From a virus (lineage: Duplodnaviria; Heunggongvirae; Uroviricota; Caudoviricetes): a stretch of DNA of 64,000 nt. The notes beneath the pieces are model-generated. The model was given only the letters and a program-made list of their open reading frames with translations. It was not told the origin of the DNA and made no database searches. The DNA is taken from IMG/VR virus record IMGVR_UViG_3300025778_000009. One strand, written 5' to 3'. The translations under genes were made by a program, and so were the position numbers. This document shows positions 49,165-60,122 of this stretch, piece after piece (positions within the stretch are counted from its first letter, which is position 1; the number at the start of each line of letters is the position of its first letter).

Positions 49165-50223
49165 ATGGGTTTGCTGCTTTTTTCTATGCGAGGTGAACAA
49201 TATCAAGAAACGTTTCAATCACTTCCTTTACCTGATTGGAGCCCAAGAAAATTTCCATTCACACAATCGGTCAGTCGTATTGTTAGAGGTATAGACCCGT
49301 TTAATTACACATCAGTATGTGAACCTATTTCTGATATTGTTAATATGCCAGTAAACAGATTTTCTTTTGAAGAAATGTGTTTACAAAGAGCGTTTGAAAT
49401 GAAAAAATTAGATAGCAATATCTATATAATGTACAGTGGTGGTATAGATAGTACATCAGCTCTAGTTGCATTTTTATTAACATGGACTTTAGAAGATCTT
49501 AAAAGAGTTTTTATTGTAACCTCAGATGAGAGTAGAATAGAGTATCCTGAATTTTGGGTAGATATATGCAAAGTTTTTGAAGGAAGAATTTTAACATCTT
49601 TTGATCATGTTGAAAATTACTGCAAAAAAGGATATGTAATTACAGGTGAGCATGGCGATCAGTTATTTGGTAGCGATGTTATTAATAGTTCAGTTCATCA
49701 TTTTGGTTATAAGTCAATTCATGCACCCTGGCAAGTATATATTCCTACTGTATATTATAAAATGTTTGGTTCTAAAATATCTAATAATATGATCGATGTT
49801 TATGAGCCTTTGCTAGAGTATTGCCCATTTAAGCTCAAGTCTACGTTTGATTGGTTATGGTGGTTTAATTTCACTAATAAATGGCAACATGTAAAATATA
49901 GGATGTTATCTTTCAGCCCGTGGGAAGATCCTAAAAACAACTTTAAGAAAATTATTCATTTTTATGATACACCGCAATGGCAACGCTGGAGTTTAGATAA
50001 TCATGATAAAAAAATGGGACCTACGCTTTACGATTACAAATTTGTAGCTAAAGATTTTGTTATCAAGTATACAAAACATGAATCTTTTAGAAATAAAAGA
50101 AAAGAAGGTAGTTTAAGTAATGTTTGGAATCAATTTGAATGTTACTATGCAATAGATACAGATTTTAATTTTTTAACCTTCGAAGAAGGTATCAAATATA
50201 TTAATAAAGGAGATAAGAGATGA
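49165..50223 (+). CDS. PP-loop ATP pyrophosphatase (adenine nucleotide alpha-hydrolase superfamily) with an uncharacterised C-terminal domain
   Basis: IYIMYSGGIDSTSAL is the SGGxDS PP-loop. An ATG at 49165 follows GGAGTGGG. The tracked ORF begins at a TTG at 49144. Confidence 0.6.
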   Translation: MGLLLFSMRGEQYQETFQSLPLPDWSPRKFPFTQSVSRIVRGIDPFNYTSVCEPISDIVNMPVNRFSFEEMCLQRAFEMKKLDSNIYIMYSGGIDSTSALVAFLLTWTLEDLKRVFIVTSDESRIEYPEFWVDICKVFEGRILTSFDHVENYCKKGYVITGEHGDQLFGSDVINSSVHHFGYKSIHAPWQVYIPTVYYKMFGSKISNNMIDVYEPLLEYCPFKLKSTFDWLWWFNFTNKWQHVKYRMLSFSPWEDPKNNFKKIIHFYDTPQWQRWSLDNHDKKMGPTLYDYKFVAKDFVIKYTKHESFRNKRKEGSLSNVWNQFECYYAIDTDFNFLTFEEGIKYINKGDKR

Positions 50224-50879
50224 TTTTATTTGAAAATGGTTTATATGAGCCTATTGATGCTAGAGATACAATGTATCCATCATTTGCACAAATGGTAGTA
50301 AATACTGAAAAGACAATAGACTGTAATTATGCAACAGTGTATGGGTTTTCTTATGGTGATGGTAAAATAGAAATTGATAGTGAAATTTATACTCTAAAAG
50401 CTGGTGAATTCTTTTCTATACCTGTAAGGGAAAATAAGCCAACATTTAGTACAACAAGTTCTATCTTTACTGTAGTACGTTTAGGTTTTATAGGACAACA
50501 TGTAATAGGTAAAATTGAAAAGACCGGTCGTCTATCTTACATCGATGGTTGTTCAGATACTATGTTAGTATATCCACCTCGTTTTGGTGATCCAAGTCTT
50601 AACTATCTTCACTTCCCTTCAAACATAAATCAATCATTCCATACACATCCTAGTATTCGATTTGGTATTGTAATTAGCGGTGAAGGTTACTCAACTCTAC
50701 AAGATAGTGAAACTAAACTTTCTTCTGGATCTATTTTCTGTTTAGAAGAACAAGAATTGCATAGATTTAGAACTGAAAATTCTCATATGAATATTATTGC
50801 TTATCACCCAGACGGTGAATGGGGCCCAACAGATGAGAACCATACTATGTTAAACAGAACATATCTAGCAGGTAAATAA
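50220..50879 (+). CDS. cupin-fold protein
   Basis: FHTHPSIRFGIVISGEGYSTL...GSIFCLEEQELHRF fits cupin motifs 1 and 2. Confidence 0.5.
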   Translation: MILFENGLYEPIDARDTMYPSFAQMVVNTEKTIDCNYATVYGFSYGDGKIEIDSEIYTLKAGEFFSIPVRENKPTFSTTSSIFTVVRLGFIGQHVIGKIEKTGRLSYIDGCSDTMLVYPPRFGDPSLNYLHFPSNINQSFHTHPSIRFGIVISGEGYSTLQDSETKLSSGSIFCLEEQELHRFRTENSHMNIIAYHPDGEWGPTDENHTMLNRTYLAGK

Positions 50880-51358
50880 TGATTGTTAAATTTCCTGATC
50901 CAATTTTAATTAGACCGGTTCAACCGTTTGATTTTAATAATCCTTTTCAAGATCCTTCTGAATTAGCTCTTGAATTAATGAAAGAAATGAACGATAATAA
51001 TGGAATAGGTTTAGCAGCAAACCAAATAGGGAAACCATACGCAGTATTTGCAATGAAAGGTTACCCAGATAATTTTGTTTGTTTTAATCCCAAGATTGTT
51101 AACACTTCTGATGATCTGGTTGAAATGGAAGAAGCATGTCTTTCATTTCCAGGTGTTGTATTAAAAATTAAAAGACCTAGTCAAGTAAGACTTAGATTTC
51201 AAATGCCTTCAGGTATGACAGATACTAAAACGTTTGATGGTCTAACAGCTCGTACAATACAACATGAAATGGAACATCTGAACGGTGAATTGTTTATTAA
51301 TAAAGCTAATCGCTATCATAGAGATAAGGCAATGAAAGGTTATTATAATGGAAAATAA
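50879..51358 (+). CDS. def: peptide deformylase
   Basis: All three PDF motifs are present: GIGLAANQIG, EACLSFPG and QHEMEHLNG. Confidence 0.85.
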   Translation: MIVKFPDPILIRPVQPFDFNNPFQDPSELALELMKEMNDNNGIGLAANQIGKPYAVFAMKGYPDNFVCFNPKIVNTSDDLVEMEEACLSFPGVVLKIKRPSQVRLRFQMPSGMTDTKTFDGLTARTIQHEMEHLNGELFINKANRYHRDKAMKGYYNGK

Positions 51359-58235: not shown

Positions 58236-58981
58236 TGAACTTACAAGAAGCATTAGCAGCATTACCTGATACAGATGATAATGTAGTATCCGTTCTTTCT
58301 GGTGGAATGGATTCTACTATCATGACTTACATCCTTGTTGCAAAGTATGGCAAGGAAAGAGTTTTTGCTTTATCATATAACTATGGTCAAAAGCAAAAGA
58401 AAGAACTTGAGATGGCTGCCAAGACATGTGAATATCTTGGCATTGCTCATAAAGTATTGGATCTTGGAATTCTTGGTGATATTGTAAAGGATGTCAGTGC
58501 AAATATCGGCGGCACTGACGTGGCTATGCCAACCATCAAAGATGTTCTTGGAGATCCACAACCTAAAACTTATGTACCATTCCGCAATATGATCTTAAAT
58601 GCATTAGCATTTTCATTTGCTGAATCTAATAAAGCTTCTCATGTATTTACCGGTTTACAAGTACATGACGAGTATGGCTACTGGGATACTTCTCAGAAAT
58701 TTGTTGATAATATGAATGCAGTTGCTGGTCTTAATCGCACCCACAAGGTTAAGCTTGAAGCGCCTTTTAGTCAATTAGCAAAGTGGGAAGAGATCAAGAT
58801 TGCAGAGGAGCTTGGTAATGTTAAACTTGAATACACTCTTACTTGTTATGATCCTGATGATGATGGAAGGTCATGTGGTGTTTGCCCCAGCTGTTCGGAG
58901 CGTATACAGAATTTTATTAGAGCTAATGTTCGTGATCCTATTGCTTACGTACACGGTATCGATTGGGATAGATTTATATAA
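58235..58981 (+). CDS. queC: 7-cyano-7-deazaguanine synthase
   Basis: VVSVLSGGMDSTIM is the PP-loop. The C-terminal zinc ligands are CYDPDDDGRSCGVCPSCSERI, a QueC-type CxxC...C cluster. Confidence 0.8.
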   Translation: MNLQEALAALPDTDDNVVSVLSGGMDSTIMTYILVAKYGKERVFALSYNYGQKQKKELEMAAKTCEYLGIAHKVLDLGILGDIVKDVSANIGGTDVAMPTIKDVLGDPQPKTYVPFRNMILNALAFSFAESNKASHVFTGLQVHDEYGYWDTSQKFVDNMNAVAGLNRTHKVKLEAPFSQLAKWEEIKIAEELGNVKLEYTLTCYDPDDDGRSCGVCPSCSERIQNFIRANVRDPIAYVHGIDWDRFI

Positions 58982-59610
58982 TGTGCAGTATCATTGGTTC
59001 TTTCAGTAAAGATAAAATTGCTGACCTCGTAAAGCTAAACCTTTATAGAGGTCAGCATTCATATTCTTATTCTTACTATAACCTTGAAGATAATACAATC
59101 CAAGTAAACAGAGGCTTAGGTGAGATACCTCTTGATGCTATTAACATACCCGATAGGTGCTATTGTATTGCTCATATGCAGGCGCCTACAACAGAAAATA
59201 AAGATATAAATTCTGTTCACCCTGCTTATAGTGGTAATGCTTTACTATGGCATAACGGTATAGTAAAGGCAAAATGGATTAACGAACGTAAGCAACAATA
59301 TGAAGGTGACCGTTATAATACTTGGGATACTTATTTGATTTTAAAGCAGTATGCTGAGGAAGGTCACCTAAATAATATTGATGGTACTTTTTCCTGTGTG
59401 TACTACAGTCCTATGGAAGGATTGCAGTTGTTTCGCAATCTCATTTCACCATTGTTCATAGATGATGATCATAATATCTCATCTACAAAATTTGAAAATT
59501 CTCAACCATTACCTGCAAATATTATCTGGAGTTTTAATCCAGGTGAAGGTATTATAAGAGATGGTATTTTTAATACAGTTGAAAACCCTTATTATGGATT
59601 AGATTTATGA
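58981..59610 (+). CDS. class-II (Ntn, AsnB-type) glutamine amidotransferase domain protein; effectively a split Gat-QueC in reversed order
   Basis: The N-terminus MCSIIGSF provides the catalytic Cys2 after Met removal. YRGQHSYS, HNGIVKAKW and GTFSCVYYS parallel AsnB MCSIFGVF, HRGPDWSG, NGEIYN and GMFAFALYD. The start ATG overlaps the queC stop as TAATG. Confidence 0.65.
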   Translation: MCSIIGSFSKDKIADLVKLNLYRGQHSYSYSYYNLEDNTIQVNRGLGEIPLDAINIPDRCYCIAHMQAPTTENKDINSVHPAYSGNALLWHNGIVKAKWINERKQQYEGDRYNTWDTYLILKQYAEEGHLNNIDGTFSCVYYSPMEGLQLFRNLISPLFIDDDHNISSTKFENSQPLPANIIWSFNPGEGIIRDGIFNTVENPYYGLDL

Positions 59611-60122
59611 GTATGTTACATATTGCTTCAAAGAAAACCAAATCAAGTTTAACCAATATGTTGGATGAAGATATCCAACCTAATGCCGTTGATCTTCGTC
59701 TTGATAAAATTTTTATTATTCATCCTGCTCTCTTTACTCTTGGTACTGATGATACTGGTAAAGAAATCAAAAAGCATAGAGGATCAGTAGAGATATATCC
59801 TGATAGTGAAGGTTACTTTTATTTGCATCCAGGTAATGCATACGAAGTTATTATGGAAAATGTTATTGAGGTAGGTGATGGTGAAGCAGGTTGGGTTATT
59901 ACCAGAAGTACTCTTAATCGTAATGGTTTGTATATTACTTCCGGTTTATATGACTCTGGCTATCATGGAGTTATGGCTGGTGCTCTACATGTAAAAAATG
60001 GTCCAGCAAAAATTAAAAAAGGTAGCCGTATTGGCCAGTTTTTACTTTTTAAGTCTGAGTCACTAAAGAAGTATGATGGTGATTATGGTCTCGGTAAAGA
60101 GCATGATAAAAAATATACTTGA
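59607..60122 (+). CDS. dUTPase / dCTP deaminase-family protein (T4 gp56-sized, 171 aa)
   Basis: NAVDLRLDKIFII...ITSGLYDSGYHGVMAGAL contains the GxxDxGYxG motif of the all-beta dUTPase/Dcd superfamily. Confidence 0.6.
   Translation: MSMLHIASKKTKSSLTNMLDEDIQPNAVDLRLDKIFIIHPALFTLGTDDTGKEIKKHRGSVEIYPDSEGYFYLHPGNAYEVIMENVIEVGDGEAGWVITRSTLNRNGLYITSGLYDSGYHGVMAGALHVKNGPAKIKKGSRIGQFLLFKSESLKKYDGDYGLGKEHDKKYT

Follow-up and report, generated by a model that had tools for sequence, protein, structure and literature searches.

A probable DpdA3/DpdN-type 7-deazaguanine DNA hypermodification island, with fdPreQ1 as its likely product, between gp46 and gp45 of an uncultured T4-core myophage

The DNA stretch of 64,000 nucleotides from IMG/VR virus record IMGVR_UViG_3300025778_000009 (Caudoviricetes; the whole stretch is called the window below) carries a group of preQ genes between gp46 and gp45. 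It is likely that this region is a DpdA3/DpdN-type 7-deazaguanine DNA hypermodification island of an uncultured T4-core myophage, and that its product is 7-(formylamino)methyl-7-deazaguanine (fdPreQ1). In the proposed pathway FolE, QueD, QueE and QueC would convert GTP to preQ0, QueC probably receiving its ammonia from the adjacent stand-alone Ntn glutaminase, with which it may form an AsnB-like split enzyme. Bimodular QueF would then turn preQ0 into preQ1, the TGT-fold enzyme DpdA3 would exchange guanine for the deazaguanine base, and PurN-like DpdN would formylate the aminomethyl group. In virion DNA most or all dG would then be replaced by fdPreQ1, and this may protect the DNA from restriction enzymes. 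A preliminary description, made without database searches, had proposed a DpdA-type 7-deazaguanine modification island here, and the complete preQ1 route, the formyltransferase and the conserved aspartates reported below bear this out. The principal genes are as follows.

51568-52458, + strand, probable start 51595: QueE, 7-carboxy-7-deazaguanine synthase, radical SAM (PHROG QueE-like, E 3.9e-55)
52712-53233, + strand: QueD, CPH4 synthase, PTPS fold (PF01242, E 4e-16)
53946-54677, + strand: FolE, GTP cyclohydrolase I (PF01227, E 3.8e-39)
55742-56533, + strand: DpdA3, predicted zinc-less TGT-fold guanine transglycosylase, 263 amino acids (homology, AlphaFold model, motifs)
56530-57066, + strand: DpdN, predicted PurN-like preQ1/dPreQ1 formyltransferase (PF00551, Formyl_trans_N, E 3.3e-08, above the gathering score)
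57267-58235, + strand: QueF, bimodular NADPH-dependent preQ0 reductase (QueF_N, E 1.7e-27; QueF, E 1.8e-21)
58235-58981, + strand: QueC, preQ0 synthase, PP-loop (PF06508, E 3e-53)

All five enzymes of the preQ1 route (FolE, QueD, QueE, QueC, QueF) are present according to family-level hidden Markov model (HMM) matches and key motifs, so the complete GTP to preQ1 route claimed at the outset withstood HMM searches. FolE, QueD and QueF are 38.5%, 41% and 46% identical, respectively, to their counterparts in the Flavobacterium phage immuto. QueF carries the NADPH-binding motif ESKSLKLY, the catalytic Cys in SNCRVTNQPDWG, and FHEE, while SGGMDS and a C-terminal CGVCPSC can be read in QueC, which is 60% identical to QueC of KVP40. 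The canonical QueD motif is C-x3-H-G-H; in 56 of the 58 QueD sequences of this clade, immuto included, it reads C-x3-H-G-Y. By its sequence matches, QueE is the weakest-matched of the five. Its gene call gives 287 amino acids, the gene is kept in related loci, and its radical-SAM Pfam matches are weak. Curated QueE models align in two stretches, at about residues 13-46 and 80-272, which therefore points to an insertion of roughly 35 amino acids near the radical-SAM cysteine region. No tRNA-type TGT, QueA, QueG or QueH was seen in the island.

The signature enzyme of the island is DpdA3, a guanine transglycosylase as predicted from its sequence and model. The 263-amino-acid protein had no Pfam, PHROG-function or NCBIfam match. 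A sequence profile built from it did not find TGT among PDB sequences, and hhalign against the single E. coli TGT sequence returned a low probability, though the alignment was consistent; the assignment therefore required fold comparison. The AlphaFold2 model has a predicted local distance difference test score (pLDDT) of 95.7 and a predicted template modelling score (pTM) of 0.91. Its top Foldseek matches in the PDB were TGT enzymes and the DpdA structure 7ui4 only (probability 1.0), with TM scores of about 0.6-0.68 when normalised to the query. By tblastn, covering 92-100% of the query, the protein is 57% identical to DpdA of immuto_2-6A, 37% to that of Campylobacter phage CP220 and 24% to that of Cellulophaga phage phiST, the founding DpdA3 members (PMC10516641). 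The CxCxxC...H zinc motif is not present in the sequence. Fold match, homology and the missing zinc motif together confirm the DpdA-like, TGT-fold protein without a zinc subdomain that had been described.

Three aspartates of DpdA3 can be placed on the TGT active site. The nucleophile of TGT, in IDMFDC, is matched in the alignment by D208 of IDSVDTSNP. D52 (ILDNSIFE) and D83 (IIPDVLE) line up in order with TGT's motifs TDSGGFQ and IFDECTP, an equivalence based on motif and order. The set D52/D83/D208 would correspond to D89/D143/D264 of E. coli TGT (D102/D156/D280 of the Z. mobilis enzyme), and it is invariant in 74 unique DpdA3 homologues. The state of the catalytic aspartates had been named beforehand as the point on which the DNA modification reading might fail; all three are retained, and for this reason the check does not favour a role in tRNA only. 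A 359-amino-acid open reading frame (ORF) at 49144 was also considered as a DpdA candidate and was rejected: it is the PP-loop protein discussed below, and the TGT-fold gene is the one at 55742-56533.

DpdN is 39% identical to immuto DpdN (YP_010114479) over 96% of its length, and four immuto records were its sole matches among 50,697 phage records. When it is compared with PurN structures, its NGHP pairs with NIHP and its VDEG with MDTG, the Asn-His-Asp triad; N90, H92 and D133 do not vary among 69 sequences. With about six exceptions, the roughly 90 DpdA3 loci listed have DpdN adjoining DpdA3. The PF00551 match, the conserved triad and the homology to immuto DpdN thus substantiate the PurN-like formyltransferase of the preliminary description. 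DNA of immuto_2-6A has no detectable dG and carries fdPreQ1 instead, which Cui et al. credit to DpdA3, FolE-QueF and the predicted formyltransferase DpdN (Cui 2023, PMC10516641). This was the only paper found on DpdA3, DpdN and fdPreQ1. The homology and triad of DpdN, the immuto-like gene order and the intact QueF motifs make fdPreQ1 the best-supported product, probably at high occupancy by analogy with immuto. An N-acylated preQ1 base had been suggested and it fits DpdN; as a novelty it does not stand, because immuto, with its matching gene set, shows 100% replacement of dG by formyl-dPreQ1 and the base was already described there (Cui 2023). Gene identities, residues, fold and synteny are direct observations, and from them we infer the product, its extent and the order of formylation and base insertion.

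Several points weigh against fdPreQ1 as the product of the island. Reconstitution of DpdA3 activity failed, no DpdA3 having been reconstituted to date, and for formylation by DpdN the founding paper itself offers no more than a prediction (PMC10516641). The NCBIfam QueE models score under their cut-offs for the window protein. The phage is uncultured, and its island is known here from genes alone. Furthermore, the glutaminase gene beside QueC resembles a split Gat-QueC, and a different or mixed product is therefore possible.

How widespread is this arrangement? A gene-by-gene comparison covered ten IMG/VR relatives, followed by a further 80; DpdA3 relatives number at least 546 in IMG/VR, and about 3,900 homologues were found in the protein collection. 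The immuto type of island has the order QueD, QueE, phosphoribosyltransferase, FolE, MazG, DpdA3, DpdN, P-loop kinase, QueF. The T4-core type begins with peptide deformylase, QueE, optionally a phosphoribosyltransferase, QueD, FolE, DpdA3, DpdN and a P-loop kinase or DUF3310 gene, and it continues with QueF, QueC, glutaminase, a DCD-like or MazG-like gene, phrog_1574 and gp45. In many uncultured T4-type contigs it always sits between gp46 and gp45. The island described here is a further member of the DpdA3/DpdN system, in a diverse and widespread uncultured T4-type lineage. To our knowledge, among cultured phages only the Flavobacterium immuto isolates have such a system of DpdA3 plus DpdN (fdPreQ1). 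Since the system is fixed at the gp46-gp45 position in such a diverse and widespread phage group, complete guanine replacement may be common among environmental T4-like phages, with consequences for restriction resistance, sequencing and basecalling, and the evolution of host defence.

A small phosphoribosyltransferase (PF00156) has been found in 38 of 50 related islands and in immuto, and none in the window island. Examples lie at 4826-5296 in locus L024, 5567-6040 in L026 and 9840-10235 in L001. Possible roles of this enzyme are salvage of the guanine that is released and synthesis of a deazaguanine ribonucleotide.

The alternative raised by the gene next to QueC is that the island makes another 7-deazaguanine or a mixture, namely dG+ through a split Gat-QueC, or unformylated dPreQ1. 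The gene in question is the following.

58981-59610, + strand: stand-alone class-II (Ntn) glutaminase (GATase_6, E 5e-05, weak; phrog_12378, E 2e-37)

Its N-terminus is MCSIIG, with the AsnB-type Ntn cysteine, and neither Cys2 nor the WHNGI motif varies among 30 sequences. It directly follows QueC in 16 of 17 loci with T4 context and is gone in two contigs whose QueC is of a different type, so that it co-varies with the type of QueC. In KVP40-like Vibrio phages it is also paired with QueC, after QueF, and a homologue occurs in Pseudomonas phage pf16. QueC, a PP-loop enzyme, uses ammonia to amidate a carboxylate. We infer that the glutaminase supplies this ammonia from glutamine, the separate Ntn gene mirroring the domain logic of AsnB. 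An intact class-II glutaminase in this position would suit dG+ synthesis, given that fused Gat-QueC yields dG+ in phage 9g (PMC6884629), and the KVP40/nt-1-type phages, which share the QueF-QueC-glutaminase trio, include nt-1, whose DNA has several deazaguanines at a low level. On the other hand, in Gat-QueC the glutaminase is fused N-terminally to QueC, and here it is a separate gene lying downstream. QueC of the window matches the fusion PHROG (phrog_10428) in its QueC half only, and the glutaminase matches phrog_12378, a different family, only. Immuto makes fdPreQ1 without any glutaminase, and if preQ0 went to G+ instead, there would be no point in keeping QueF and DpdN intact, as virtually all related loci do. 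A product other than fdPreQ1 is accordingly unlikely.

A second alternative is that additional enzymes in the gap (the PP-loop ATPase, the cupin and the flavodoxin-like reductase) lead to a more elaborate base or to a second modification. The preliminary description had regarded the combination, with these genes, the nucleases, the glutaminase and the dUTPase-family protein among its members, as fuller than the clusters described so far and had suggested that it may yield more than one modification. These three genes, the HNH endonuclease and a small protein that overlaps DpdA3 are listed below.

49165-50223, + strand: stand-alone PP-loop (SGGIDS) adenylating enzyme (motif)
50220-50879, + strand: Cupin_2 protein, partner of the PP-loop gene (Pfam Cupin_2, E 3.9e-10)
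53233-53934, + strand: NADPH-dependent FMN reductase, flavodoxin-like (PF03358, FMN_red, E 1.4e-15)
54977-55330, + strand: free-standing HNH endonuclease (PF01844; PHROG HNH, E 4.7e-22)
55314-55745, + strand: protein of 143 amino acids, overlapping the start of DpdA3 (no family match)

The three enzymes do lie physically inside the gp46-gp45 gap, and amidation of a carboxylate such as CDG would in principle be open to a PP-loop adenylating enzyme. The PP-loop protein had no Pfam, PHROG or NCBIfam match. Its AlphaFold2 model (pLDDT 94.8) gave weak fold matches to C-domains of Asn-synthetase-family enzymes, which would suit such a role, to beta-lactam-synthetase C-domains and to LarE, with E above 5e-3 and TM at most 0.41. 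Large bacterial contigs carry its homologues (50-56% identity) as part of a constant trio (loci L014, L016 and L020) of a PP-loop protein of 343 amino acids, a protein of 197-198 and, downstream, a Cupin_2 protein of 219-226, equal in size to the window cupin, and near this trio no que or dpd genes were found. The sequences indicate that the PP-loop and cupin genes of the window are a phage copy of two genes from this conserved bacterial three-gene module, and the PP-loop enzyme is probably strain-specific cargo outside the deazaguanine pathway. The bacterial trio sits near cytochrome bc1 and P460 genes.

The FMN reductase could serve as electron donor for QueE; none of about 100 related loci has a homologue of it. 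In the sister contig L002 QueD and FolE are contiguous, and the reductase of the window is inserted precisely between them. The genes flanking HNH are likewise contiguous in L002, whose DpdA3 is 97% identical and which lacks HNH; the latter is likely a homing endonuclease insertion. The PP-loop, cupin, FMN reductase and HNH genes are all missing from the closest sister contigs, L002 included, that keep the whole que/dpd set, and relatives hold unrelated genes in the same slot. It is thus very improbable that the three enzymes elaborate the base, and an extension of the chemistry by them or by the nucleases is not sustained. Both the glutaminase and the dUTPase-family protein are part of the conserved module, but there is no evidence that either gives a second modification. 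The extras being strain-specific cargo, a bacterial module or backbone genes, the greater fullness of the cluster largely dissolves.

The region around the peptide deformylase gene, just after gp46, is a hypervariable cargo site. In L002 the PP-loop/cupin slot (4006-4899) is occupied by a different gene of about 290 amino acids, and L025 has a Glyco_transf_25 gene (5199-5966) just downstream of the deformylase.

Two nucleases had been read in the island. The HNH gene is confirmed by its profiles; the second was probably the 143-amino-acid protein, for which a PD-(D/E)xK nuclease fold, suggested by eye, was rejected, as no family match was detected even at E up to 1. Its homologues are 13 ORFs of related loci, usually just upstream of DpdA3. 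Otherwise nearly the whole earlier gene list agreed with profile searches; the peptide deformylase (50879-51358) and the DUF3310 gene (57050-57304) had been missed.

That the cluster merely raises queuosine precursors for host or phage tRNA, as phage que genes without DpdA were once understood (PMC6884629), is scarcely credible given a DpdA3 with all its catalytic aspartates, a window in which tRNA genes were not found, the lack of a tRNA-type TGT with a zinc or PUA domain, a formyltransferase that has no role in queuosine synthesis, and a homologous immuto cluster that gives fully modified DNA.

The surroundings of DpdA3 offer further information through two genes of the conserved module.

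57050-57304, + strand: DUF3310 protein, in the kinase slot after DpdN (PF11753, E 2.1e-12; PHROGs 'nucleotide kinase', E 5.8e-23)
59607-60122, + strand: dUTPase/DCD-fold dNTP pyrophosphatase-like protein, in the phosphohydrolase slot (PF22769, E 9.3e-17)

DUF3310 forms the C-terminal part (amino acids 122-184) of T7 gp1.7, whose annotation is nucleotide kinase. The window protein consists only of this domain and is 29% identical to it. A kinase-like gene is present in all 83 loci with enough downstream sequence, following DpdA3-DpdN in the listed gene orders: it is an AAA_28/thymidylate-kinase-like P-loop protein in 66, DUF3310 in 15 and both in 2. The DCD-like protein matches the NCBIfam dUTPase model PRK02253 (E 5e-23, under its cut-off) and the PDB dUTPase 9w59 (E 4.7e-08). 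Among 50 loci with long flanks, 48 have a MazG-like (33) or dUTPase/DCD-like (15) gene. Close DCD-like homologues occur in only four phage records, each of which (4/4) has a DpdA3-like gene within about 6 kb. We considered a backbone origin for the dUTPase-like gene, as it adjoins the phrog_1574 gene in phage RHph_I1_18, and rejected it: a DpdA3-like gene is present in RHph_I1_18 too, the dUTPase-like gene is missing from backbone relatives that have no DpdA3, and all four records with homologues carry DpdA3-like genes.

The same adjacency of DpdA3 and a kinase-like gene, usually with a phosphohydrolase nearby, extends over about 90 related loci and seven groups of cultured phages. In CP220 the order is HD+AAA_33 protein, DpdA3, thymidylate kinase (L107, 7868-10361). 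In phiST (L108, 5564-7726) MazG is encoded two genes upstream of DpdA3, with an AAA_18 protein immediately before DpdA3. The phiST neighbour CGPG_00066 was discounted by Cui et al. on the ground that BLAST showed no homologues of it in other deazaguanine phages (PMC10516641). Contrary to this, analogous kinases do exist in other phages of this kind; in Chryseobacterium phage MA9V-3, too, an AAA_18 protein adjoins a DpdA3-like gene. Hypothetical proteins of Vibrio phage D479 (L112, 4609-6498), Aeromonas phage Ahp1_CNU-2021 (L114, 5554-7537) and Vibrio phage Bakedbeans (L113, 70-996) match the DpdA3 profile at E 1e-6 to 7e-14, and judging by these matches all three look like unrecognised DpdA3 phages. 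In D479 and Ahp1 the DpdA3-like gene is directly followed by a T4 gp1-type dNMP kinase and a DCD-like gene, and FolE lies a few kb upstream. RHph_I1_18 (MN988519.1; L022, 5729-6997) has a protein of 422 amino acids in which a domain resembling DpdA3 (E 2e-8 against DpdA3 of the window) is fused to a C-terminal DUF3310, annotated only as 'DUF3310 domain-containing'. It occupies the gp46-gp45 position, with FolE, QueD-like and dUTPase-like genes nearby, and on the basis of these sequences the phage probably modifies its guanines, though it is not annotated so. In total, four kinase families and three phosphohydrolase families occur near DpdA3 across the phages examined. Different families in the same slots suggest that functions, rather than particular genes, have been selected together with DpdA3.

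At which level, then, does the exchange occur? Cui et al. suggest that the reaction takes place on DNA, after replication (PMC10516641). A modified-dGTP route had been proposed earlier for Campylobacter phages, as noted by Hutinet et al. (PMC6884629), and was set aside once DpdA3 was found. Whether guanine is exchanged on DNA or on nucleotides is again a matter of interpretation, and we suggest only tentatively, at clearly less than even confidence, that DpdA3 systems are pre-replicative pathways acting on the nucleotide pool rather than post-replicative DNA transglycosylation systems. In such a route a dNTP phosphohydrolase (here of the dUTPase/DCD type, in immuto and phiST a MazG-like protein, in CP220 one of the HD type) would turn dGTP into dGMP and so keep dGTP out of DNA. 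DpdA3 would exchange guanine for the deazaguanine base on the nucleotide, and DpdN would formylate a small-molecule substrate. The adjacent kinase would rephosphorylate the product for incorporation by the phage polymerase; this would be the DUF3310/T7 gp1.7-like protein here, AAA_28/thymidylate-kinase-like, AAA_18/33 or T4 gp1-like deoxynucleoside monophosphate kinases elsewhere, and a kinase domain fused to DpdA3 in RHph_I1_18.

PurN-family enzymes typically act on small-molecule substrates. This property, the phosphohydrolase/DpdA3/kinase triad, the DpdA3-DUF3310 fusion and the 100% replacement fit a pool route like that of T4 hydroxymethylcytosine (hmC). If true, it explains why only DpdA3 phages reach 100% replacement. 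Alternatively, the kinase and phosphohydrolase genes could serve the salvage of released guanine or general nucleotide metabolism. The association of DpdA3 with a kinase and a dNTP phosphohydrolase was not used in the founding papers; it makes the question of DNA versus pool, as the basis of 100% replacement, directly testable with a few recombinant enzymes.

The island is set in a conventional T4-core backbone, represented in the window by these genes.

45911-46978, + strand: gp47, left flank (Pfam Metallophos)
46988-48703, + strand: gp46, SbcC/Rad50-like recombination nuclease subunit, left backbone flank (Pfam SMC_N, AAA_23)
50879-51358, + strand: peptide deformylase (PF01327, E 1.7e-36)
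60315-61388, + strand: phrog_1574 protein, 357 amino acids, with weak glycosyltransferase-like matches, preceding gp45 (phrog_1574, E 2e-61)
61406-62071, + strand: gp45 (Pfam gp45-slide_C)
62081-63016, + strand: gp44 (Pfam Gp44_lid/AAA)
63013-63444, + strand: gp62 (Pfam Phage_clamp_A)
63389-63793, + strand: regA (Pfam Translat_reg)

From the end of gp46 (48703) to the start of gp45 (61406) there are 12,702 bp, and all ORFs inside are on the + strand; the Pfam-identified flanks and this gap verify the claimed position of the preQ gene island. The gp46 protein is about 50% identical to gp46 of Stenotrophomonas phage DLP6, OM43 phage Melnitz, Sinorhizobium phage phiM12 and cyanophages. Megablast of the 12.4-kb region gave zero matches in the phage collection, so there is no close cultured relative. 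Homologues of the phrog_1574 protein adjoin gp46 or gp45 in DLP6, phiM12, Cr30 and RHph_I1_18, most of them without DpdA3, and peptide deformylase has a matching position in DLP6 and RHph_I1_18. Since both are common to relatives without DpdA3, they belong to the backbone: the phrog_1574 protein is a conserved backbone gene marking the right boundary of the island, and the deformylase is a backbone auxiliary gene rather than island cargo. A 229-kb metagenomic contig also carries the identical sequence. No tRNA genes were found across the whole window. Elsewhere in it we noted a + strand ORF of 2,207 amino acids (1747-8370), whose product is presumably a structural or fibre protein, and, at 36.2-41 kb, a block of ORFs on the - strand.

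Comparison with known systems shows which features are shared and which are peculiar to the window. Gat-QueC of phage 9g and archaea, a G+ synthase, likewise ties a class-II glutaminase to a QueC module; there the two are fused, whereas the window has two genes, a downstream glutaminase of a different family, and QueF and DpdN alongside. The KVP40/nt-1-type Vibrio phages are T4-related and share the QueF-QueC-glutaminase trio (QueC 60%, QueF 45% and glutaminase 32% identity), but they have DpdA2 (also ArcS2) and lack DpdN, where the window has DpdA3 and DpdN. Their modification affects less than 0.2% of G (PMC6884629).

CP220 (dADG) and phiST (dDG) each show 100% replacement, with DpdA3 homologues 37% and 24% identical to that of the window and, as in the window, flanked by kinase-like and phosphohydrolase genes. 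They end at CDG-derived bases and are without QueF and DpdN, both of which the window has. The que genes of CP220 are dispersed, in contrast to the clustered ones here.

The T4 hydroxymethylcytosine pathway consists of the gp56 dCTPase, the gp42 dCMP hydroxymethylase and the gp1 dNMP kinase. As in DpdA3 phages, pyrophosphatase-like, base-modifying and dNMP-kinase-like genes occur together with complete base replacement. The difference lies in the modifying enzyme, which in the window is a transglycosylase of TGT fold that is at present taken to act on DNA, its action at the nucleotide level being hypothetical.

Immuto has the backbone of a family A polymerase phage, whereas the window is T4-core with gp43-type replication genes. 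The kinase slot is filled by an AAA_28/thymidylate-kinase-like protein in immuto and by DUF3310 in the window, and the pyrophosphatase is MazG-like in the former and of the dUTPase/DCD fold in the latter. The stand-alone glutaminase after QueC is found in the window and not in immuto, the phosphoribosyltransferase in immuto and not in the window. The product of immuto, fdPreQ1, was measured, while the system of the window is known from genes alone. In both, a dNTP-pyrophosphatase-like gene forms part of the cluster, and the enzyme set and the order DpdA3, DpdN, kinase-like gene, QueF are matching (Cui 2023, PMC10516641).

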